Translations under genes and position numbers: made by a program
Part shown: positions 4,038 to 51,812 of the stretch, one piece after another
How the letters are laid out: every line of letters begins with the position of its first letter
Numbering within the stretch: position 1 is the first letter of the stretch
The notes under the pieces: model-generated
Database searches by the model: none
What the model was told of the DNA's origin: nothing
Seen by the model: only the letters and a program-made list of their open reading frames with translations
Assembly: GCA_963662545.2 (NCBI GenBank)
Contig: CAXXLL010000003.1
Span: 1,504,001-1,568,000, forward strand
From: Gammaproteobacteria bacterium
Lineage (GTDB): Bacteria > Pseudomonadota > Gammaproteobacteria > Ga0077536
Direction: 5' to 3'
Length of the DNA stretch: 64,000 bases

Positions 4038-5738
4038 CTAGGGAGCAAGCGTGCTGGACAGATTGCTGATCCGCTGGAGCACATTGGCCGGGTTGAAGTT
4101 GCCGCCGCTGGCGTCGGCGAGACTCAAACTTTTCTGGTAATAGTTCAATGCCGCCGGACCCTGCCCTAAGCGATCGAGGCTGACGGCGAGATTGAAGTTG
4201 TAATCGGCGTTTTCGGCATCGAGGCCGACGGCCGAGAAATAAGCCTGCTGAGCATTACCCCAGCGGCCTTGCCTGGCATACCAATTGCCGAGCGCAAAAT
4301 GGATGAACGCGGAGTCGCCATGGCTGTCGAGCAGCATGCGCAGGCGCGCGGCCGTCGCTTCACCCCTACCGCCCGTCAGCGACAGGAGCGCGGCGGTCGC
4401 CACCGGATCGTCGGGGACCCGCTTGAGCACGGCGGCGTAATGCCGGTAAGCCGTCGCCAGATCACCCTCCCCTTGTGCAATCGCCCCGAGGCCTAAAAGC
4501 GCATCGCGGCGGTCGGGATGACCCGCCAGCGCCGTTTCGTATCGGGACTTGGCTGTTGCCATGTCGCCGTTGGAGAAGGCGTCGTAAGCGCCCTGGATGT
4601 CAGCGTCGACCGCCGCCGGCTTGCGGGTGCGTGAAATGCGGACTTCGCCGACGCCAACGTCGATCACGGGCTCAGTCGATATCGGGGGAGGTGCTGGCAC
4701 CGAGGGCGTTCCTGTCGGTAGGGGCGCTTCGGCAATTGGTGCCGGCTCGACTTCGGGCAAGGGCTCATCCGATTCAACTGTTGCGATTTCCACCGGCGCT
4801 TTCATGGCGAGAGCTGCCTCGGAGGTTTGCGGCGCGAGGTCCTGTCGCCCTTCGACCAGGGGCAGGGGCTCGGTTTCACTAATCGTCAACGGTGGCCGGG
4901 TATCGATGCGCGGCAACGCGGCCGCAGCGCTCGTTGTCCTCGGTTGAATCGGGACCACCGGCAGTTCGCGGGAGTCCTGGCGTTCGACGCCGTCGGCGAC
5001 AGCCGGCGATGGCATGGTGCGCTGCTCGGGCGTCTGCTGGGCGTAGAAAAACCCGATGATCCCGATGCCGATTACGATCAATAGGGCAAGAGAAGCGCCG
5101 ATCAGTAAAATCGGCCGCGAGCGCGGTCGCTCGCCGGCCGCAAAGACCGTTTGCGCACCGACGACGGTATGTGCCGCGACGTCCTCGAGCGTGCTATCTC
5201 CGGCGCTGCGCGAATCGCCGCGGGGCAATTCCATCGATTGTGATTGTTCGAAATAGGCTTCCAAATCATGTTGCACCGCGCGCGTCGAGGGAAGGGTTGA
5301 GGTTTGGTCCGATCGTGCGCGCGCACCTCCGCGCGTCGTCGCGCCCGTCGAATCCGCGCCGGTTTCGAGCGTATCGGATCGCGTATCGTCCTGACCGATG
5401 TCGTCGTCGACCTCGAGCGGTGTGAGTTCGAGCCCGTCGGACTGCATCATCGAAGCGCTGGTATCGCCGTCTTCGAATGGATCCAGCGGTTCCATTTCGA
5501 GCTGCGCCGGCGGCTGTTCGAGCGCGGCGGACTCCTCTTCAAGCGAGGCGGCCTCGATCTGCATGGTGACGTCTTCGGGTCCGGCCGCCGCCGATTGCAC
5601 CGTAACCGCGCCCGTATCGACGCCCGGCTCTGGCGCCTTTTCCGCGCCCGCCGGCCGGGCTGTCTCTTTGCCCTCTTGCGCTTCCTGCCGCTTCTTCTCC
5701 TCTTCGGCGCGACGCAGGGCGTCCATCAACAAACTCAT
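4038..5738 (-). CDS. Membrane-anchored TPR protein (MshN/GspB-like)
   Basis: MSLLMDALRRAEEEK N-terminus, acidic low-complexity linker, one TM helix, C-terminal TPRs (FALGNWYARQGRW...FNLAVSLDRLG). Confidence 0.8.
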   Translation of the reverse strand: MSLLMDALRRAEEEKKRQEAQEGKETARPAGAEKAPEPGVDTGAVTVQSAAAGPEDVTMQIEAASLEEESAALEQPPAQLEMEPLDPFEDGDTSASMMQSDGLELTPLEVDDDIGQDDTRSDTLETGADSTGATTRGGARARSDQTSTLPSTRAVQHDLEAYFEQSQSMELPRGDSRSAGDSTLEDVAAHTVVGAQTVFAAGERPRSRPILLIGASLALLIVIGIGIIGFFYAQQTPEQRTMPSPAVADGVERQDSRELPVVPIQPRTTSAAAALPRIDTRPPLTISETEPLPLVEGRQDLAPQTSEAALAMKAPVEIATVESDEPLPEVEPAPIAEAPLPTGTPSVPAPPPISTEPVIDVGVGEVRISRTRKPAAVDADIQGAYDAFSNGDMATAKSRYETALAGHPDRRDALLGLGAIAQGEGDLATAYRHYAAVLKRVPDDPVATAALLSLTGGRGEATAARLRMLLDSHGDSAFIHFALGNWYARQGRWGNAQQAYFSAVGLDAENADYNFNLAVSLDRLGQGPAALNYYQKSLSLADASGGNFNPANVLQRISNLSSTLAP

Positions 5739-43009: not shown

Positions 43010-46000
43010 TCAGGACGCGGGAGCGACGTGTTCACCGGCCGCTTTTCCGCCGGGGCGCAAACGGCGGCCGAGGTCGAACGTCAAGGTCAGGAGTGCCGGC
43101 ATGAACGTGATCGTGACTAAGGTTGAAAACAAAATACCGAACAGCACGATAGCGCCGAGTCCGCGATAAAGCTCGGTGCCGGCGCCCGGGTTGAGGACCA
43201 GCGGAGACAAGCTGATCACCGTGGTAACCATGGACATCATGATCGGCCGCAGTCGCGAGCGCGTCGCTTCTATGACTGCCTCGCGAATATCCATCCGGCC
43301 CTGCTTCAGGTTTCTGACGGCGCGCTCAACCAGCAGGATAGGATTGTTGACGACCGTACCGATCAAAACCAGAAAGCCCAGCATCGTGATCACGTCTAAA
43401 GGCTGCTGTATGACCGGTAGACCAAAGCGGCCCATTTCCTGGCCCACCACGTTCATCAGCCACAGCCCGACGATACCACCGCTGATCCCGATAGGGACGG
43501 ATGCCAATATCAGCAGGGGATATCCCCAATGAGAAAAGATCGCGACGAGAAGCAGGTAGGAGATAAGGACGGCGATGATGAAATTCCCGCCCAGGGCTTC
43601 TCGTGTCGCCCTCAGCCGATCGTTTGCCCCGCTGATATCCATTGACACGCTGGGCGCGATCTCGCCGGATTCCTGCAGATGCCGAATGAGTTCGCGTTCG
43701 ACTCGCTCCACACCGACCTCGAGTGGGATTTCCTTAGGCGGGATGATGGAGAGCGTGATGGTGCGACGCCCGTCGACGCGGCGAATGGTTTCCGTATTCA
43801 CGGTTTCGGTCACCTTCGCGATGGCGTCGAGCGGAACCACGCCGCCATTCGGCGAGAAGAGCAGCAGGTTTTCGATGTCTTCCGGTCCTTCGATCGAGCC
43901 CTGGGTCGAATAGATGAACATGTCAATCTTATCGTCGCCGAGGAAAAATTCGTCGACGAAAGCACCGTCGGAAAACGCCCAGATGGCGTAGCCCAGGTCG
44001 TCGGTTTCGATACCGAGTTCGGCAGCGCGCTCCCAATCGGGTTTGATTTCGATCATGGGCTGCCCCATCGTTAAACTCGACGGTTGCGGTCGAACCTGCG
44101 GATTGACGAAGATCTCTCGGGACCTCGCGAAAGCACGCGCGCCGGCTTCGAACAGGGGCGCCAGCTCAGGACCGCTAATGTCGAGATTAATGCTCCGCGT
44201 ACCGCCCAGGTTGCTCGCGAAAATGGAACCGCGCGACGCGAACGAGATGACGCCGGGAACCTCACGAAAACGCGCCGTCACTGCTTTGACCAGGTCGTCT
44301 GTTTGCGCCCGATCGGTCGCCTCCGGGATAAGCATTACCATACCGGCATAGGCATAGCTGATGACAAAATTGAGCGCCGGAACTTCGGCTTCGCCCGCAT
44401 CGAAAACAGCCGGATCCTGGCCGATGAAGGGCACGAAATAGTCATTCAACTGACCCAGAATGCCGTCCATGACCGCAATGTTGTAGCCCGGCGGCGAAAA
44501 CATGAAAGCGAAGATCTTCTGCTCTTCGCCCTCGGGCAAGTATTCTGCCTTGGGCGTTAGGAAACCGATGATGCCCGCTGATACCGCGAGTACGACGCCG
44601 ATCAAAACGACGGCCCGTATCGACCCCGAGACGAGCCAGCGGACAAAGGCGACCACGGCTTCGCCGATACGTGCGCCGACTATTTGAATACCGGAGAGAA
44701 ATCCCGGGGCTCGACTCTGCCGGGGTTTCACCCAGCGGCTCATCGCCGCCGGGACCAGCGTGACCGCCACCACCATCGACATCAAAATGGACGCCGAGAT
44801 GGCAACCGCGATATCGGAATAGAGCTGCCCCGCTTCCTCCTTGATGAAGATCACCGGCAGAAAGACGAGCACCGTGGTCATTGTCGAGGCAAGTATCGCG
44901 GGCCATACTTCCCGCACACCTGTGATTGCTGCATCCACCCGCGACTTGCCTTCCGCAAGATGGCGGTAGATGTTCTCCAGCACAACGATGCTGTTGTCGA
45001 GCGTCATCCCGATCGCGAAAGCAACGCCCGCGAGCGAAATGACGTTGATCGTTCGCCCCGCCAACATCAGCCCGAGAAACGCCACCACGGTGCAGATGGG
45101 TATACCGACCGCGCCGATCGCCGTCGCCGCCGCGGACCGCAGAAACAGGAAAAGCACAACGATCGCAAAACTGGCGCCGATTAAGAGATTGCGCCCTACC
45201 ACCCACACCGCGTCCTTGACGTACTGGACGTCCTCGCTGCTGAGCTCCATCTGCAGTCCCCGCGAACTCAAAACGGTCCTGTTGAGGTCCGCGACTTCCT
45301 CGACTACGGCGTCCAACACCTCGACCACGTTCGCACCGATCATGCGGCGGACGCCTATCGTGATGTTCGGGCGCCCGTTGGCGTAGGACACGTTCCTGAC
45401 TTCGAAGCTCCCCATCGCCGCGTACCCCACGTCCCGCAGGCGTACCGAGACATCACCGCGCCGCGCGATGATCAGGTCATCGATGGACTCGACCGTGTCG
45501 AACCGGCCGATGGTACGAACGATGTAGCGCCGCTTGCCTGCATCCAGATCTCCGCCTGAGACGTCGCGATTGCGGCCGCGAATGGCATCGCGCAACTCCC
45601 GCACGCTGATGCGCCGATCGGCAAGTTTGATCGGATCGACATAGATCTTTACCTGGCGCTCAGTGCCACCCCAGACTTCGGCCTCCGACACGCCCGTGAC
45701 CCGCTCGATCCGCACCGCCACGTAATCCTGTACGAAATCACGCATGAGGTGGACGTCCACGTTCATCGGGTTTCCCGGCAGAGGCGTCACCCGGAAGAAC
45801 ATGAACGGATTATTGGAGTAGGAACTCGTGATGATTCGCGGTTCGTCTACGTTCTCGGGATAGGATGGAACCTGTGTGAGAGCATTGTTCACGCGGATCA
45901 GGATCTCGTTGAGATCGGCGCCGTGTGAAAATTCGAGTTCGATGCGCGCCTGGCCCATGCGTGACTCGGAGATCATCCGCTCGAGGCCAATGATGTTTCG

Positions 46001-46207
46001 CAGATAATCCTCTTGCTCGATGATGATTTCCTTTTCGATGTCCTGTGGCGTCGCACCCGGCCAGGTCGTGCGTACCCTGACCGTGCGTACGTCCAGGTCC
46101 GGGATCATCTGCTTGGGTATGCGTGAGATCGACGTCAGCCCGAACAGGCAGACGATCAGAATGACAACCGTCATGACAATGGGCTTGCGGACTGCAAACT
46201 CGAACAT
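43010..46207 (-). CDS. RND efflux permease (AcrB/MdtB-like)
   Basis: 1065 aa; WPGATPQDIE, GMTLDNSIVVLENIYR, SRLRPIMM. Confidence 0.93.
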   Translation of the reverse strand: MFEFAVRKPIVMTVVILIVCLFGLTSISRIPKQMIPDLDVRTVRVRTTWPGATPQDIEKEIIIEQEDYLRNIIGLERMISESRMGQARIELEFSHGADLNEILIRVNNALTQVPSYPENVDEPRIITSSYSNNPFMFFRVTPLPGNPMNVDVHLMRDFVQDYVAVRIERVTGVSEAEVWGGTERQVKIYVDPIKLADRRISVRELRDAIRGRNRDVSGGDLDAGKRRYIVRTIGRFDTVESIDDLIIARRGDVSVRLRDVGYAAMGSFEVRNVSYANGRPNITIGVRRMIGANVVEVLDAVVEEVADLNRTVLSSRGLQMELSSEDVQYVKDAVWVVGRNLLIGASFAIVVLFLFLRSAAATAIGAVGIPICTVVAFLGLMLAGRTINVISLAGVAFAIGMTLDNSIVVLENIYRHLAEGKSRVDAAITGVREVWPAILASTMTTVLVFLPVIFIKEEAGQLYSDIAVAISASILMSMVVAVTLVPAAMSRWVKPRQSRAPGFLSGIQIVGARIGEAVVAFVRWLVSGSIRAVVLIGVVLAVSAGIIGFLTPKAEYLPEGEEQKIFAFMFSPPGYNIAVMDGILGQLNDYFVPFIGQDPAVFDAGEAEVPALNFVISYAYAGMVMLIPEATDRAQTDDLVKAVTARFREVPGVISFASRGSIFASNLGGTRSINLDISGPELAPLFEAGARAFARSREIFVNPQVRPQPSSLTMGQPMIEIKPDWERAAELGIETDDLGYAIWAFSDGAFVDEFFLGDDKIDMFIYSTQGSIEGPEDIENLLLFSPNGGVVPLDAIAKVTETVNTETIRRVDGRRTITLSIIPPKEIPLEVGVERVERELIRHLQESGEIAPSVSMDISGANDRLRATREALGGNFIIAVLISYLLLVAIFSHWGYPLLILASVPIGISGGIVGLWLMNVVGQEMGRFGLPVIQQPLDVITMLGFLVLIGTVVNNPILLVERAVRNLKQGRMDIREAVIEATRSRLRPIMMSMVTTVISLSPLVLNPGAGTELYRGLGAIVLFGILFSTLVTITFMPALLTLTFDLGRRLRPGGKAAGEHVAPAS

Positions 46208-46237
46208 GACGGATTCAGGCCACCCGGAAAGAGGGTG

Positions 46238-47335
46238 TCATATGTCCTGCGCGCGCTCTTCGGCGACGAGGACCGATTGGCCGGGCCTCAGGATCTCGTT
46301 GCCGCGAACGACTACTTGCTGCCCGGCACTGACGTCACCGTGCACAATCTCGATGTGATCCCGATAGGAACGGCCCGTCTCGATTCGCCGCGGGACGGCC
46401 TTGGTGACGCCATCTTCGACGACGATGACCCAGACATTGGCGCTACCATCCGGTTTCCGCACCACCGCATCGCGCGGTAGCAGCAGCGCGGATGCCTGGC
46501 CGCGCGCGCCGATGTACAGAGAGACGCGCGCCGACATCCCGGGTGCCAACCGCTTCTCATCATTGGGAATATCGATCCATATTCTGAACGTTCTCGAGGT
46601 CGCGTCGCTAATGGGAATCTTTCTCGCTACCTTCGCCTCGAAAGTCCGCTCGGGCATGGCGTCAAAGCGAATGGTCACGTCGGTGTCGATTTCGACACCC
46701 GCGTAATAAAACTGCGGTACGGGCACCTCCAATCGCAACAGCTTGACGTCGACAAGCTCGACGAGAGCCGTGTTGGTTTCAACCCATTCGCCTTGCTCAA
46801 CCAGCTTGCGGCTCACGACGGCATCGAAGGGGGCGTGAACAACGTGACGCCGCAGCAATTCCCGCGCCCTCTCCAATTGCGCTGCGGCCTGCTTAACCGT
46901 AGCGGCGGCGATATCTATCTGAGCCTTGGCGGCAGAGACAGCCGTGTCGGCGACATTGCGGGTCTCCTGCAACTCGAGCAGTTCACGATATCGTCGTTCG
47001 GACTCGAGCTTGCGTGCGCGGGCTTCTTCGAGCCGCGCATTTGCCACATTGACGTCGATTCGCGCAAGCGCTCGATCTAGCCGTAGAACGACTGCACCGC
47101 GCTCAATACGATCACCGTCATCGACCCGTATCTCGGTAACAAGGCCGTCGATTTCAGTCGAAAGGCGCGCAGTCCTGTGTGCGATCAGGCTGCCGTTGAG
47201 CGTGACTTCCTCACGTATTTCGGCTGTCTGTACGATAGAGACGCCGACCGGTACGGGTGCTTCGGCCATCAAGCCCGGCGGCGCGAAACAGATACCGCCG
47301 AGCGCCAAGACGCGGACGAGTCGCGCCGCTATCAA
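46238..47335 (-). CDS. RND periplasmic adaptor (membrane fusion protein)
   Basis: HAPFDAVV, LAPGMSARV, LLPRDAVV, VVVRGNEILRPG. Confidence 0.92.
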   Translation of the reverse strand: MIAARLVRVLALGGICFAPPGLMAEAPVPVGVSIVQTAEIREEVTLNGSLIAHRTARLSTEIDGLVTEIRVDDGDRIERGAVVLRLDRALARIDVNVANARLEEARARKLESERRYRELLELQETRNVADTAVSAAKAQIDIAAATVKQAAAQLERARELLRRHVVHAPFDAVVSRKLVEQGEWVETNTALVELVDVKLLRLEVPVPQFYYAGVEIDTDVTIRFDAMPERTFEAKVARKIPISDATSRTFRIWIDIPNDEKRLAPGMSARVSLYIGARGQASALLLPRDAVVRKPDGSANVWVIVVEDGVTKAVPRRIETGRSYRDHIEIVHGDVSAGQQVVVRGNEILRPGQSVLVAEERAQDI

Positions 47336-47604: not shown

Positions 47605-47628
47605 AAACCCCGCCTTAGTGCGGGGTTT
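47605..47628 (-). terminator. Hairpin terminator after the MNIO operon
   Basis: AAACCCCGC-N6-GCGGGGTTT, about 37 nt past the DUF2063 stop. Confidence 0.6.
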
Positions 47629-47664: not shown

Positions 47665-48459
47665 TTAGTTTCGCCGGGTACCGAGTATCACCACCCGTTC
47701 GAGCATCCGTTCGAGAATTGCACTGCTGGCCTCGATTAGAGCGGAAACATCGTCACGGCCCAACTCGTTCGCGACGATTTGGTAAATCTCGAACCCGGTC
47801 CTTCCCCTATCCTCGATGATGAGTCCCAGAAGGCGCGCTGAGGCGCTGCTCAAATCCAGGAAACCATAGAGGTTGTCCAAATCGCGAAACGCGGCGATCC
47901 GCGTCGCCGCGGGAGGCGGTACGATAGGCTGATACTCCGAATCGATGGTATGCACCGGAAATCGATAGGTCACGATCTCGAGGATGGGATTGGGCACCGG
48001 GATTTCCTTGATCAGGTCGCCGCTGCGATCGACCCCCGTCAGATCGATCTGCCGCTCATCCGCGCCTATCAAGGTTTCAAGCCAATCGAAGTGCGCGAGT
48101 TCGGCCAGGAAGGGCGGATCAGCCGGATCCTTACGCTCGCTTTCGAGATACTCGAGAAACTCCAGCGGCAGGTCGACGAAGGCCGACGCCCCGGATGCAT
48201 GGACAATAAGATAATCCCGCACCATGGCGTTCCAGCGCTCGTCATCGAAGATCTCACGCACCCTCGGAAAGTTGTCCTTCATGAAACCTTCGACGTTCGC
48301 GAATACCGCGTGGCGGTAGATAGCCATGCGACGATCCTCGTGACCTGGCGGAGAAGCCTGCTGGTCGGGATCGCGCAGGTGTCGGGTAAACAAGCGCTGC
48401 AGGCGAATGAACTCCGGTTCCATCACGAAAGATTTCTCAGGCTGCGGTGTCCTCGACAC
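47665..48459 (-). CDS. DUF2063 (HvfC/BufC-like) MNIO partner protein
   Basis: FTRHLRDP, RRMAIYR, NFPRVR, PFLAELAHFDWLE; overlaps the DUF692 gene. Confidence 0.88.
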   Translation of the reverse strand: MSRTPQPEKSFVMEPEFIRLQRLFTRHLRDPDQQASPPGHEDRRMAIYRHAVFANVEGFMKDNFPRVREIFDDERWNAMVRDYLIVHASGASAFVDLPLEFLEYLESERKDPADPPFLAELAHFDWLETLIGADERQIDLTGVDRSGDLIKEIPVPNPILEIVTYRFPVHTIDSEYQPIVPPPAATRIAAFRDLDNLYGFLDLSSASARLLGLIIEDRGRTGFEIYQIVANELGRDDVSALIEASSAILERMLERVVILGTRRN

Positions 48460-49345
48460 TTCGAGCGTATCGCGATTGCAATGCTCTGATTCTGTCCACT
48501 TCGGGCATCACCTCGCCGAGCGGCGGGATATTCTCGTCGCGCTCCAGCAATGTCGGAAATACGCCAAATTCCTGGTACGCGAATTCCAATAAGGACCACA
48601 CGGGATCGATGATGGGCTCGCCATGCGTATCGACGATGAGGTCCTCATCCTCGTTGGTATGCCCGGCAATGTGTGCATAGGCTAATCGTTCCGCGGGAAT
48701 GCTCGAGATGAACGACTTCGCCTCATAGCAATGATTCACGCTGTTGACGTAGACGTTGTTCACATCGAACAGAAGCTGGCAGTCGGCTTCCTCGAGTACG
48801 GCCTTGATGAAGGTAATTTCATCTAATTCCGTCGACAAAGCCAGATAATACGACGCGTTTTCCACCGCGATCGTCCGCTCCAGCACATCCTGGACTTGCC
48901 GAATTCTCGCGGCAACATGGCGCACGGCTTCATCGGTGAATGGAATTGGAAGGAGCTCGTATAGCTGACCACTCTCCGCGCAGAAAGTCAGGTGATCGCC
49001 ATAGATGAGAACCTTGTGGCGGTCCAGGAATTTTTTTACGCGCTCGAGGTATTCGAGGTCCAGGGGATCCGGACCGCCGAGATTGAGCAGTAATCCGTGG
49101 CAGACGAGGGGTCGTTCACGGGTAATCCGTTCAAATGCCTCGCCGAGGCGGCCGCCTACACCGACCCAGTTCTCGGGAGCGACTTCAAGGAATTCGATTT
49201 CGTCTGGGATGTGGTCTTGCAGCGGACCCATGTGGGTCCGCCGCAGACCAAGACCGGCGCCGTTGACGGCGAACTTCCGCTGCACCGGTTTTGTTTGGAC
49301 AGAGATGTCCGGGTCGTTTATTTCTTGAGGTGCTTCATCGAGCAC
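48437..49345 (-). CDS. DUF692 multinuclear non-heme iron oxidative enzyme (MNIO, HvfB/BufB-like)
   Basis: GLGLRR, EVAPENW, HGL, DHL, ENASYY, DVNNVYVN, HIAGH, VDTHG, LLERDENIP. The true start may be slightly downstream. Confidence 0.95.
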   Translation of the reverse strand: MLDEAPQEINDPDISVQTKPVQRKFAVNGAGLGLRRTHMGPLQDHIPDEIEFLEVAPENWVGVGGRLGEAFERITRERPLVCHGLLLNLGGPDPLDLEYLERVKKFLDRHKVLIYGDHLTFCAESGQLYELLPIPFTDEAVRHVAARIRQVQDVLERTIAVENASYYLALSTELDEITFIKAVLEEADCQLLFDVNNVYVNSVNHCYEAKSFISSIPAERLAYAHIAGHTNEDEDLIVDTHGEPIIDPVWSLLEFAYQEFGVFPTLLERDENIPPLGEVMPEVDRIRALQSRYARSVEDTAA

Positions 49346-49629
49346 ATATCACCAGCGAAGGTCCCGCAAACACCGGGATCTTTCATGCCGGTCGCGAGCT
49401 TCCCGCCAGCGTATTTAGCCTTCTGGTCGCCACCGTAGGTGAAACCGGTTTCGTCATTGATCATGACTTTGTTGCCCTGCATATCCATGGCTTCCCCGGC
49501 AACAGTAATGCCTTCACCGAATTCCACCATCTGGAAAGGGTTGTCGGCCGCGTTAGCGGACACCGCTAATGCCAGAATGACACTCGAACCAAGCGCAGCA
49601 GCAACAGGCTTCAGGTTATTTTTCTTCAT
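49318..49629 (-). CDS. Secreted MNIO precursor peptide (103 aa)
   Basis: GAGGAGG RBS, Sec signal ending ANA-A, ADNPF motif, C-terminal PGVCGTFAGDMCSMKHLKK; first gene of the DUF692-DUF2063 operon. Confidence 0.85.
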   Translation of the reverse strand: MKKNNLKPVAAALGSSVILALAVSANAADNPFQMVEFGEGITVAGEAMDMQGNKVMINDETGFTYGGDQKAKYAGGKLATGMKDPGVCGTFAGDMCSMKHLKK

Positions 49630-49955
49630 GATTGACCTTCCTCCTCGGAGATTTTTTAACGTTGTACAACACCCCCAGGGACCGGCCGCGACACGCCCAT
49701 GCATCCATTCGGGCAGGGTCCGGCAGCTATCCGGGCGGGGCTAGGAATGTTAGCGATCGAGGTAATATAAGTCTAGGCAGGCGGGATCCCGACGGACGCG
49801 GTCGGTGGGCAAAAAAACCCCGCTCGGGCAAACCGCCGCGGACTTAGGCGAATTGGAGCATAACGCTATCACTACGCAGGCTATGTTAGAGCCGGCAGGC
49901 CGAATCCCCTTGGGAAATTCTCGTAGACATCTTAAGCACCGGGCGCGAAATTCGA

Positions 49956-51007
49956 ATGCAAGGTAACGTGTTGATTGCATTTATTTTATTGAGCTTGTCC
50001 GCGCTTGCTCAAGGCGCAGACACGGGCATCGATGCCTTCCGCTGCGGCGATTTTGGCGCCGCCCACCGGTACTTCACGGCAAAGGCCGAGCGCGGCGACC
50101 GGATAGCGCAGAACAATCTGGGCGTCATGTATCTGAAAGGGCGTGGCGTCGAGGTCGATTTCGACCAGGCTAGAGAGTATTTCGAAGCGGCCGCCGGGCA
50201 GGCTCTCGCGGGCGCGATGTTCAATCTGGGCATCATGCACCTGCGGGGCTACGGCAGCGACATCAATCACCGCGAGGCGGTCACCTGGTTTCATAAAAGT
50301 GCCGCGCGCGGTGATCGCGAAGCGCAATTCTTCCTCGGGCTGATGTATTTCAAAGGCCAGGGGATCATGCCCGACCCTGAGAAGGCGCGTCAGTGGTTTC
50401 AGAAATCCGCTGAGGCAGGCTTAGCGGCGGCGCAGTTCAATCTCGCCATGATGGTTCTCGATGGTGAAGATAGCACCGCCGATGGTGAAGATAGCACGAG
50501 GACGAGGCGCTGCGCTGGCTCGATGCGGCAGCCGAGCAGGGTCATGAACAAGCCAAGCTGCATATTGCCAAGGTGCATCTCGCACACGTGGACGACCCCG
50601 ATAGAGCGGCTCACGCCGCCACCGTCTTGCACGAACTTGTCGACGCCGGCGAACCCGAAGCGCAGATGCAATACGGGTTGATGCATACCTTCGGGCACGG
50701 CGTACCGCTCGATCACGAAGAAGGCCGGTTCTGGTTGCGGCAATCGGCCCTGCAGGGACTGACGGCAGCCCAAATCAATCTCGGGGCAATTTATGCCGAA
50801 GGGCTGGGCACGGATCCGGACCTCGTCAAAGCCTTTGCCTGGTTGACCCTCGGCGCGGAAAATAGTCGTGCGGCGAACCAGGCTTTGGAGCAGGTCTCTC
50901 AACGGATCAAGCTCGAAGACCGCGCGCTGGCCGAAGCGATGATCACCGAACTGAGGCGGAAGACGGCGAAGGACCGCATTCCGAAGGTCGGCGAAACCGC
51001 ACACTAA
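49956..51007 (+). pseudogene. Sel1-like repeat exported protein, frameshifted
   Basis: AQNNLGVMY, AMFNLGIM, AQFFLGLMY repeats. Deleting the 14-nt insert 50483-50496 joins both ORFs into 345 aa. Confidence 0.85.
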
Positions 51008-51530: not shown

Positions 51531-51812
51531 ATGTTCATGACTAAACTAACTCGCGTTTCTCGCCGGCCGGTCGGGGCTCTCGCACTGTTTGCCGCCTTGA
51601 ACCTGTGGCAACCGGGCTTGATGTCCGCGGAAAGCGAAACCGCGCCGGCCACATCACCAACGGAGCAATCCCAGAGTACGGGCGAATCGAAACCCGCGGA
51701 TAAGAAGTGCTTTCATGGCTGCCTCAGGTGGGGCAGGTTCTGCAACGTCGATCCGCGCGGAGTCTACAAGTGCCGGCGGCGTTGCGAGAAATTCGGCGAA
51801 ATTTGCGAGTGA
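51531..51812 (+). CDS. Small exported six-cysteine peptide
   Basis: Signal-like N-terminus, S/T/E/P linker, C-terminal CFHGCLRWGRFCNVDPRGVYKCRRRCEKFGEICE; GTGA overlap with the next gene. Confidence 0.72.
   Translation: MFMTKLTRVSRRPVGALALFAALNLWQPGLMSAESETAPATSPTEQSQSTGESKPADKKCFHGCLRWGRFCNVDPRGVYKCRRRCEKFGEICE

Follow-up and report, generated by a model that had tools for sequence, protein, structure and literature searches.

Organisation of the operon

Within the window, the 64,000 nt stretch of DNA analysed here, three overlapping ORFs on the minus strand encode a 103 aa precursor (49629..49318; P0001), an MNIO of the HvfB family (49345..48437; P0002; PF05114, NF003818) and its HvfC partner (48459..47665; P0003; NF050145), the last composed of a DUF2063 domain and an RRE-like NGO1945_C domain. 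Together with the Pfam and NCBIfam matches, the positions of these ORFs bear out the original prediction of an MNIO/DUF2063 RiPP operon. The precursor, which consists of a signal peptide, an HvfA-type leader motif and a C-terminal two-Cys module, is preceded by a GGAGG box lying 9-13 nt upstream of its ATG. The longest ORF of the MNIO begins with a GTG that overlaps the 3' end of the precursor gene, and the true start may be downstream of this codon. As had been proposed, a hairpin is present at the end of the operon: it is G+C-rich, has a 10 bp stem (47605-47628; z -1.8) and is found 37 nt past the hvfC stop codon, though the T-run is on the plus strand only, the stem ending in no more than UUU on the operon strand. 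The hairpin right behind the stop codon of the precursor was not significant (5 bp, z -0.34).

No DoxX, sigma-70 domain protein or NrsF was detected among the 23 larger flanking ORFs scanned (35.7-63.7 kb), in agreement with the suggestion that ECF sigma/anti-sigma and DoxX genes are absent from the vicinity, nor did the flanking ORFs scanned include any copper gene or regulator adjacent to the operon. An RND pump encoded downstream was rejected as a functional partner because it is common to only two of 73 loci. Around 43 loci have the ThiG-TrmB-HAD-Sel1 synteny upstream, but these are all kin, and hence it does not constitute evidence of function.

Metatranscriptome contigs from three runs, representing two studies, extend from 49255, 49268 and 49314 to 49711, 49728 and 49733 with 0-1 differences, thereby covering the precursor gene. 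They also delimit what is probably the 5' untranslated region of the precursor mRNA (49630..49733, minus strand), a weak assignment, as such contigs cannot reveal the transcript start. Some stretches of the MNIO gene and of hvfC lack cover in these RNA-library contigs, in which gaps are uninformative.

A secreted precursor with two conserved cysteines

Residues 1-27 of the precursor (MKKNNLKP..SANA; 49549..49629, minus strand) read as a Sec-type signal peptide and form a family-conserved N-terminus, with an A-N-A cleavage site placed by the AXA rule and not by computation. Thirteen of the 76 residues beyond this presumed site are Gly. Inspection of the codons confirmed that there are exactly two Cys residues, Cys88 and Cys96, along with His100, as originally described. 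Neither Pfam nor NCBIfam models match the precursor at E <= 1, hence it belongs to neither the DUF2282 nor the HvfA/KCGExKCG model; as it also lacks any KCG and has just the two Cys, the earlier view that both EGKCG repeats and the DUF2282 pattern are missing is upheld. A search of Pfam, NCBIfam and the literature found neither a curated model nor a published description of the family.

The precursor has 208 relatives at E <= 0.01, in uncultured Gammaproteobacteria; the 120 listed are 72-97% identical and about 103 aa in length. Alignments A1, A2 and A5 define a conserved C-terminal module, DMQGNxV..F.YGGD....Y..GK..TG.KDP.VCG[TS]F....CS..[HY], at residues 47-103 (49321..49491, minus strand). 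None of the 121 close members lacks Cys88, found within V-C-G (codon 49366..49368, minus strand); of the 116 that were scorable, 115 have Val87, all have Cys96 and Ser97, and 115 have His at position 100. Across the 61 sequences of alignment A2, Cys88 and Gly89 are invariant and Cys96 nearly so. A distant subgroup (e.g. L044, L053, L057 and L068-70) has Tyr in place of the His. The Cx7C spacing, whose conservation had been put forward as a check, is therefore kept across the family along with the His. The invariance of Cys88 and the precedent of FonBC make this residue the most likely site of modification; on the basis of its conservation, Cys96, in the context C-S-[MVI] (codon 49342..49344, minus strand), may be a second site or a metal or disulfide partner, and His100 (codon 49330..49332, minus strand) is a candidate metal ligand.

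Seven Met residues lie past the signal peptide (34, 48, 50, 56, 82, 95 and 98), so this copy is indeed Met-rich, but this is not a trait of the family: the mature part has between two and seven Met (median four) in the 116 scorable close relatives, only M34, M50 and M98 being conserved and M56 being present in about half. As most Met positions are not conserved, there is little support beyond Met98 for the mixed Met/heterocycle copper site that had been envisaged.

Using the 61-sequence alignment, AlphaFold2 predicted no secondary structure for the precursor (mean pLDDT 48.7, pTM 0.18), which fits a peptide substrate whose conservation stems from its partners and not from a core. With the precursor family as profile, a search of the PDB returned no matches at E <= 1, and the best score from an ESM Atlas look-up was at chance level (0.80), with a PcoE cluster at rank 13 likewise unusable (0.76). 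EPTP-like repeats in giant proteins align with residues 25-60 at 35-46% identity over 30-40 residues; these were rejected as homologues because the presence of up to 11 repeats inflates the E-values, the likeness being, as judged from the sequences, a resemblance between beta-hairpin motifs.

The leader motif and its predicted recognition

A profile of the family aligns with the N-terminal region (positions 3-54, E 1.7e-7) of the canonical HvfA encoded in the same genome, and side-by-side comparison reveals that the segment NPFQMVEFGE, at residues 30-39 (49513..49542, minus strand), is homologous to the NPFxxxxFxSGYMVA of canonical HvfA precursors. The HvfA-like signal peptide and NPF start noted originally are thus corroborated by homology of the leader. 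The complex of HvfB, HvfC and the precursor was predicted with a score of 0.67 (individual runs 0.71, 0.64 and 0.67), a mark reached by 116 of 157 solved complexes and two of 215 mismatched pairs, while the best control scored 0.01; the runs agreed in at least 21% of contacts. The confident interface joins precursor residues 30-39 to residues 197-207 and 233-255 of the HvfC C-terminal domain, the lowest-error contacts (1.0-1.8 A expected error) being a predicted strand pairing between HvfC residues 197-207 (47839..47871, minus strand) and the leader motif. No other part of the precursor is placed with confidence: the core is unplaced and the fold of the partner uncertain (pLDDT around 33).

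The leader motif is missing from 11 of the 20 copies lacking an adjacent MNIO. In three syntenic copies (L048, L051 and L053) both the enzymes and the NPF segment are absent, one of these, L053, retaining a 28 aa remnant of the MNIO; such joint loss would be anticipated for a segment needed by the enzymes alone. In both HvfA and bufferin, the Sec signal is itself described as part of the leader in the accessible text of 10.64898/2026.07.17.739211.

A distinct branch of HvfB-type enzymes

The MNIO scores 398.9 bits on the HvfB model NF003818 (cut-off 360), covering all of its 264 positions (1-264), and matches PF05114 with an E-value of 1.2e-97, but scores 261.9 against the BufB model, below the cut-off of 310. 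The HvfC protein likewise exceeds the threshold of NF050145 (208.2 bits, cut-off 142) and contains PF09836 (E 2.3e-22) and PF22106 (E 1.3e-14); its only solved relative detectable by sequence is 3DEE (E 1.5e-4). Nine candidate iron-site residues of the MNIO, putative ligands by the spacing in MbnB, are invariant in 29 sequences (H83, H118, E162, D194, N197, H225, D239, H241 and E268). Also invariant in these is D270, at the position of the FonB base Asp249.

The adjacent residue is Glu271 (codon 48533..48535, minus strand), which aligns with FonB Phe250. This position is Glu in 39, Leu in four, Val in three, Ile in one and Phe in none of 47 MNIOs found beside repeat-less precursors, as against Phe in 27, Tyr in one and Ala in one of 29 from the canonical clade. 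Hence, of the residues forming the Lys-Cys-type pocket of FonB (R15, R16 and F250), the MNIO keeps the Arg-Arg pair, in the sequence GLGLRR, but not the Phe. Two residues past the Arg-Arg pair is a His found in all 47 repeat-less-type enzymes and in only two of the 29 canonical sequences. In a tree the two types are split by a branch with 99% SH-aLRT support, its root resting on one very long outgroup branch; as the loss of Phe and the gain of His fall on this one split, they represent one evolutionary event rather than repeated covariation. The MNIO is nonetheless 55-62% identical to canonical HvfB enzymes (tblastn).

The order precursor-MNIO-HvfC is kept in 48 of the 73 loci from other genomes. 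Within the window's own family, 23 of the 36 relatives searched carry the repeat-less type, and 23 of the 26 module matches in relatives are directly beside an HvfB-type match. This is the sole HvfB-type match in five relatives (G010, G011, G016, G031 and G032), and therefore the repeat-less type does not depend on a canonical operon. The carriers are uncultured Gammaproteobacteria of one family, apparently from marine or sponge-associated settings.

Relationship to known MNIO systems

The gene order precursor-MNIO-DUF2063 is common to HvfA/oxazolin, fontiphorin (FonA), gonophorin and bulbicupramide (MmrA). The precursor shares with those of the HvfA/captophorin kind a Sec signal with an NPF..G[YF]xVA leader behind it, a Cys-Gly dyad at the likely site and an expected periplasmic fate; the enzymes score above the thresholds of the HvfB and HvfC models, and the operon likewise encodes no protease or exporter. 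Captophorins are defined in the accessible text of PMC13097082 as Cu-associated peptidic 5-thiooxazole metallophores of MNIO-PME1 systems, in which the MNIO and PME1 are encoded beside a Cys-containing precursor; the window has this arrangement at the level of its genes.

However, the precursor has no EGKCG repeats and does not match NF050188 or NF050137 at E <= 1, HvfA models that the control precursors P0131 and P0184 do match; these models describe metallophores with an oxazolone/thioamide modification, since reassigned to 5-thiooxazole. Its two Cys are eight residues apart, unlike the 4-58 Cys arranged in five-residue units of HvfA and captophorin precursors; Val rather than Lys is found ahead of the Cys, a conserved 40-residue stretch without Cys precedes the site, and the equivalent of Phe250 is missing from the MNIO. 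Among the Cys-rich ORF sequences in the accessible part of PMC13097082, no member of the precursor family was found. We therefore see it as derived from the HvfA kind rather than as the new precursor class of the original prediction, because the leader is common to both and the HvfB and HvfC proteins exceed the NCBI cut-offs.

Bufferin 1 (DUF2282, BufA1) is a Sec-exported precursor too, and one modified by an MNIO together with a DUF2063 protein, BufB and BufC; it has few Cys, two of which become thiooxazoles, and binds copper at a single site (PMC11626156; PMC12452194, accessible parts). Modification of the window precursor is suggested by analogy with it. In contrast to bufferin 1, this precursor has no DUF2282 match and no four-Cys pattern and is predicted to be disordered, DoxX and sigma/anti-sigma genes are not found near the operon, and the MNIO falls under the BufB cut-off.

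As described in accessible sections of PMC12452194 (Antoine et al. 2025), Buf_EGKCG can be fused to EF-hand_5 domains, a precedent for an HvfA-type leader with a second, unrelated C-terminal domain. We observed such EF-hand fusions in L098 and L100, and five precursors in which the two-Cys module takes the place of the EF-hands behind EGKCG repeats (P0131, L054, L055, L062 and L064). The window family differs from Buf_EGKCG-EF-hand_5 in lacking the EGKCG part altogether, such that the added module holds the only Cys. The same sections describe 'CxxxxC' precursors and 'hundreds of small ORFs with 1 to 18 Cys' ahead of MNIOs of the mega-cluster. These share with our precursor a signal peptide, few Cys and a position adjoining the large cluster of bufferin and oxazolin MNIOs; compared by description rather than by sequence, the spacing here is Cx7C and not Cx4C, and CxxxxC clusters often include DoxX and a Lactamase_B_2 gene. 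The window family may be among these unclassified small ORFs.

A candidate repeat-less metallophore

On balance, and by analogy with these systems, we favour the interpretation that the operon belongs to the HvfA/captophorin kind as a member without repeats and specifies an MNIO-made periplasmic metallophore with a 5-thiooxazole at Cys88, maybe also at Cys96, and a Cu(I) site. The 103 aa precursor would be made in the cytoplasm, its signal peptide and NPFQMVEFG segment being held, as predicted, by the RRE-like C-terminal domain of HvfC, which would bring the C-terminal tail, itself disordered, to the iron centre of HvfB, here a specialised paralogue. This enzyme would oxidise Cys88 of V-C-G, and possibly Cys96 of C-S-M, to 5-thiooxazole, a step suggested by its identity to canonical HvfB and by the published chemistry of the clade. 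Following Sec export and removal of the signal peptide, a 76-residue periplasmic peptide would result, in which one or two thiooxazole thiolates together with His100, and perhaps Met98, might bind one Cu(I) or other soft metal ion, as oxazolin, fontiphorin and bufferins would lead us to expect. According to the accessible text of PMC13097082, FonBC accepts only Gly or Ala after the Cys, modifies an NVCGG variant once and leaves a substrate with a single EGKCG unit unmodified; hence a lone site, or Cys96-Ser97, would require a tolerance different from that of FonBC.

The Cys-bearing tail of 55 aa is a module in its own right, found not only behind EGKCG repeats but also free-standing without leader or MNIO. 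At 20 of the 73 loci there is no MNIO despite at least around 1 kb of downstream sequence, and in 11 of these the leader is gone too, while Cys88, Cys96, Ser97 and the His or Tyr at position 100 are retained; these copies have unrelated gene surroundings, such as positions following nqrF or next to apbE. In such copies the Cys must be conserved for a reason independent of an adjacent MNIO, which weakens the inference that their conservation reflects modification. The module could accordingly be an autonomous periplasmic peptide with an unmodified Cys2-His/Tyr metal site or a Cx7C disulfide loop, a mere passenger on an HvfA-type leader that the MNIO modifies marginally or not at all. The fusion precursors, whose enzymes keep the canonical Phe (three of three), and the EF-hand fusions, both published and observed here, are in keeping with this, yet we judge it unlikely. 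In 47 operons the precursor has no other Cys, and still the MNIO and HvfC proteins keep the iron-site residues at 59-92% identity, when an enzyme pair deprived of substrate would be expected to decay; furthermore, the leader is kept only alongside the enzymes, and the pocket residue is changed exactly where the EGKCG repeats have vanished. Under the favoured metallophore interpretation, the module would have existed, or would still exist, as an independent secreted peptide, and in this lineage would have become the sole core of an HvfA-type leader, the substrate pocket of the enzyme changing alongside.

The chemistry might also be other than 5-thiooxazole formation, for instance an oxazolone-thioamide, a cross-link of two Cys-derived units or an oxidation not involving Cys. 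The MNIO superfamily is described, in the accessible literature, as catalysing many reactions; the pocket differs from that of canonical HvfB in two respects, the replacement of Phe by Glu, Leu, Val or Ile and the new invariant His; and both the Cx7C spacing and the C-S context are unlike every tested substrate in the accessible text of PMC13097082. The same text reports that in FonB the residues on either side of the Cys are contacted by Phe250, substitution of which alters the flanks accepted, but also that F250D and F250A enzymes still form 5-thiooxazole, and it unifies the MNIO-PME1 pairs of the clade as 5-thiooxazole formers. With the MNIO scoring above the HvfB cut-off and so similar to canonical HvfB, a different product appears improbable. 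That the 103 aa protein is no substrate, with the enzymes instead acting in trans on the canonical EGKCG-repeat HvfA found elsewhere in the same genome, is hardly credible, since HvfA is encoded there beside an HvfB and an HvfC of its own, five relatives hold only the repeat-less type, and the predicted complex puts the leader of this precursor on this HvfC.

Implications

Few RiPP systems of Pseudomonadota are as common as MNIO-PME1 pairs, whose characterised substrates are all either rich in Cys repeats, of the EGKCG or CK types, or DUF2282 proteins. By analogy with these, the repeat-less precursor probably represents a new, minimal type of thiooxazole peptide that binds copper, of a sort that genome mining by 'Cys-rich' rules would miss. 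With two Cys, the family is a minimal natural candidate substrate for probing what HvfB-type enzymes need, and its MNIOs are natural variants at the pocket residue mutated in FonB; the unmodified, leaderless counterparts of the core would allow the contribution of the heterocycle to metal binding to be gauged directly. More speculatively, and as a possibility that we hold only tentatively, the module may be an autonomous secreted metal- or redox-active peptide captured by the HvfBC machinery, its core now existing in three states: free and unmodified, behind EGKCG repeats with a canonical enzyme, and as sole core with a re-tuned enzyme in which Phe has become Glu and a His has been gained. Were this so, these loci would constitute a living series for the recruitment of RiPP cores and the co-adaptation of MNIO pockets, and the metal selectivity of the peptide may be shifted by a heterocycle, single-site or of different chemistry, that the re-tuned enzyme introduces.

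Operon organisation and gene content

The window's minus strand carries three overlapping genes: a 103 aa precursor, P0001 (49629..49318), preceded by a GGAGG box; a 302 aa MNIO, P0002 (49345..48437); and a 264 aa partner, P0003 (48459..47665), consisting of DUF2063 and NGO1945_C domains. A 10 bp G+C-rich hairpin (47605-47628) lies 3' of the operon, with a T-run on the opposite strand to it. P0002 is identified as an MNIO by Pfam (PF05114, E = 1.2e-97), and exceeds the cut-off of the NCBI HvfB equivalog model (398.9 bits against 360) but not those of the NCBIfam BufB, ApyH, MbnB and ChrH models; P0003 exceeds that for HvfC (208.2 bits against 142). P0001 has no Pfam or NCBIfam match at E ≤ 1. 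The original prediction of a precursor-DUF692-DUF2063 operon closed by a hairpin is borne out, as is its description of a peptide with a Gly-rich middle, seven Met, His100 and only two cysteines, Cys88 and Cys96; it was also right that no DoxX or sigma/anti-sigma gene is adjacent, none being present among the 23 flanking ORFs scanned.

Downstream on the same strand (43010-47335) are a divergent RND permease, scoring 519.6 bits against a multidrug subfamily model (far under its cut-off of 1250), and an adaptor; this pump is common to just two of 73 related loci, and beyond it are Dps and a cytochrome P450. On the plus strand, a divergently transcribed Sel1-repeat gene (49956-51007) occupies two overlapping ORFs (49956-50681 and 50573-51007), with a 17 nt direct duplication at about 50461-50498; relatives have a single ORF of around 350 aa (as at locus L048), and the split may represent a frameshift or an assembly error. 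Also on the plus strand, a 93 aa ORF (51531-51812) with a signal-like N terminus and six Cys (..CFHGCLRWGRFCNVDPRGVYKCRRRCEKFGEICE) overlaps the annotated start of the HAD nucleotidase ORF; neither Pfam nor NCBIfam matches it, and 28 of the 73 related loci conserve it. Two further MNIO operons lie elsewhere in this genome, outside the window, at G000:C3:654761-658543 (L075) and G000:C3:1280810-1284592 (L074): one is a canonical EGKCG HvfA-HvfB-HvfC operon, the other Buf2-like, its precursor having CKG..GGC units and an RRDFNK twin-arginine-like N terminus, and an MNIO and a DUF2063 protein being encoded next.

The precursor gene and about 85-105 nt upstream are represented in contigs of three metatranscriptomic runs, which belong to two studies (spanning 49255, 49268 or 49314 to 49711, 49728 or 49733, with 0-1 differences), and a fourth run contains a relative; contigs can neither prove transcription nor set transcript ends, so these only weakly suggest expression.

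A conserved precursor family of two parts

By word-indexed search, 208 relatives of P0001 at E ≤ 0.01 were found among 5.8 billion proteins. The 120 listed have 72-97% identity, are nearly all 102-104 aa long and originate from uncultured Gammaproteobacteria, the sole name, where given, being 'hypothetical protein'; further small, more distant relatives emerged when 1.84 billion cluster representatives were searched exhaustively. Cys88 is present in all 121 close family members, and in the 116 scorable ones Cys96 and Ser97 are universal, with His100 and Val87 each in 115; hence the Cx7C pattern, proposed originally as a point to check, is conserved. G66, G67, Y73, G81, K83, D84, C88 and G89 are invariant in an alignment of 61 sequences, with identity down to 37%. 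The suggested richness in Met did not extend to the family, as mature parts contain 2-7 (median 4), with only M34, M50 and M98 conserved. AlphaFold2, given the 61-sequence alignment, returned no fold (mean pLDDT 48.7), so what is conserved is a peptide that partners read, as opposed to a packed domain. The family is real, conserved and unnamed.

Residues 1-46 comprise a signal peptide followed by A-x-NPFQMVEFGxGxxVA, and are homologous to the N terminus of canonical EGKCG precursors. A profile of the family matches this part of the canonical HvfA encoded in the same genome (starting ..ANDNPFSATAFTSGYMVAD; E = 1.7e-7), and the same pattern is found in twenty-odd canonical precursors of relatives. 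The leader region (window 49513-49560; precursor residues 25-60) also resembles a repeat of around 42 aa, SAADNxWxSVTYGNGLFVA...GNRVMTSPDGITW, present in up to 11 copies in giant FN3- and Por-tail-bearing proteins (P0135, P0137, P0139 and others). These repeats score as EPTP repeats and have 35-46% identity to the leader region over 30-40 residues, which probably reflects a shared beta-hairpin pattern, not common descent.

Residues 47-103, DMQGNxV..F.YGGD....Y..GK..TG.KDP.VCG[TS]F....CS..[HY], are a module of their own, found in other settings. It is fused behind EGKCG repeats in protein P0131 and at L054, L055, L062 and, partly, L064, and stands free with a plain signal peptide or lipoprotein box at L063, L065, L067-L071 and L073.

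Genomic contexts of the module

A pattern scan, with one genome per species, gave 73 loci, 48 of which have precursor, MNIO and HvfC in that order; five are cut by contig ends or are fragments only (L035, L049, L050, L055 and L061), and 20 have the module but no MNIO, although their sequence continues for about 1 kb or more downstream. The NPF leader is kept in nine of these 20 and absent from 11, and their surroundings are diverse, including a PQQ dehydrogenase with a TonB receptor, the end of an nqr operon, and apbE. Three leaderless copies (L048, L051 and L053) are syntenic with the window, having ThiG/TrmB/HAD/Sel1 genes upstream, and lack both enzymes and the NPF segment, with a 28 aa MNIO remnant in L053; thus leader and enzymes were lost together and the module survives. 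Across 61 genomes (60 relatives and the window's own) the module is present in 25: 23 of 36 in the window's own family, against 1 of 24 outside it. Most module matches (23/26) directly adjoin an HvfB-type match, which in five genomes is the only one.

Among the copies lacking MNIOs nearby, L066:5001-5384 and L072:4941-5312 encode a divergent protein in which a long acidic/Ala-rich middle separates an NPF leader from VCGADGG[GS]HL; it is flanked by a LuxR-type response regulator on one side and by a PQQ-dependent dehydrogenase with a TonB-dependent receptor on the other. Leaderless or lipoprotein forms (L065:4872-5159, L071:4863-5162, and L068 and L073 at about 4947-5189) directly follow nqrF and a CBS-domain gene or are neighbours of apbE; such a form closes Na+-NQR gene clusters in several genomes.

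A distinct HvfB lineage

In published work on FonB, a characterised HvfB-type MNIO, Asp249 is the catalytic base, Phe250 touches the residues flanking the Cys, F250D tolerates a bulky residue before it, Arg15 and Arg16 recognise the preceding Glu, and a Gly after the Cys is required (PMC13097082). We took 80 MNIOs from the loci, labelling each by its upstream precursor. The Phe250 position is F in 27, Y in one and A in one of the 29 canonical enzymes, and F in all three beside fusion precursors; the 47 beside repeat-less precursors have E (39), L (4), V (3) or I (1), and never F. P0002, with the motif ERDEN, has Glu271 here. A His two residues past the Arg-Arg pair is likewise found in 47/47 of these, against 2/29 canonical enzymes. 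In a quick IQ-TREE phylogeny of the 80 rows, rooted by one long outgroup branch, a branch with 99% SH-aLRT support divides the canonical and fusion enzymes (32 rows) from the 47, and the change therefore counts as one event. P0001 has Val before Cys88, where canonical precursors have Lys, and Gly after it; judged from these residues, the direction of the pocket change is sensible, with the Gly that FonB needs retained. P0002 is a specialised HvfB paralogue. Separately, HvfB-type enzymes with GLGLRRVH at L102 and L104 (genomes G012 and G019) lie beside precursors with KCGNICGG or KCxSxCG units and no EGKCG, another unclassified type on the same leader.

Predicted docking, proposed mechanism and alternatives

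The predicted HvfB, HvfC and precursor complex scored 0.67 (runs 0.71, 0.64 and 0.67) against 0.01 for the best control. Of 157 solved complexes, 116 attained that mark, as did two of 215 mismatched pairs. Contact agreement between runs is at least 21%, with a partner pLDDT of about 33. The sole confident contacts join precursor residues 30-39 (NPFQMVEFGE) to HvfC 197-207 and 233-255, in the NGO1945_C domain, a predicted strand addition of the mode expected of an RRE; the Cys-bearing tail has no placement in this model. The solved relative of P0003 by sequence is the apo structure 3DEE only. Solved complexes exist for the distantly related MbnABC, so the predicted docking may partly reflect memory of these.

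The analysis establishes what the genes are, which families the enzymes belong to, that the precursor is conserved, that its leader is homologous to that of canonical precursors and that the enzyme pocket differs. The reading that we favour, as probable, is that HvfBC forms 5-thiooxazole at Cys88, perhaps also Cys96, and that the exported peptide binds Cu(I). The leader, as docking predicts, would be held by HvfC as the specialised HvfB modifies the Cys in the cytoplasm; following Sec export, the thiolate or thiolates and His100 would bind Cu(I) in the periplasm. Chemistry, modified site or sites and metal are inferred. In the main rival reading, the module would be a passenger domain that functions without modification: the leaderless orphan modules accord with this, yet 47 intact enzyme pairs have their adjacent Cys solely in the module, and we think it unlikely. 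Less likely still is that the MNIO performs a chemistry other than 5-thiooxazole formation, and it is highly improbable that the enzymes act in trans on canonical HvfA.

Relationship to described precursors

The literature compared comprised Antoine et al. 2025 (PMC12452194), Gadgil et al. 2026 (PMC13097082), a Microbulbifer paper (PMC12538549) and an HvfBC cofactor preprint (10.64898/2026.07.17.739211). Signal-peptide precursor groups already known are DUF2282, Buf2 (CK), EGKCG (EF-hands present or absent), CxxxxC and adjamnio-3, besides 'hundreds' of small ORFs that have 1-18 Cys and no classification; the P0001 family may sit unremarked among the latter. No description of an HvfA leader bearing a Cx7C-His core, of the fusion and orphan module forms or of the Phe-to-Glu enzyme lineage was found in the portions of the four that were compared. 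VCGTF and KDPAVCG do not occur in the 'Cys-rich ORFs' sequence table of PMC13097082, which is RefSeq-built and possibly incomplete. The original interpretation is partly supported: the family is conserved and unnamed, but with a leader homologous to that of EGKCG precursors it is a variant of the HvfA type and not a separate class. P0001, an HvfA-type precursor with two Cys and no repeats, is accompanied by a co-adapted HvfB paralogue and rests on a module that is found outside MNIO operons too.
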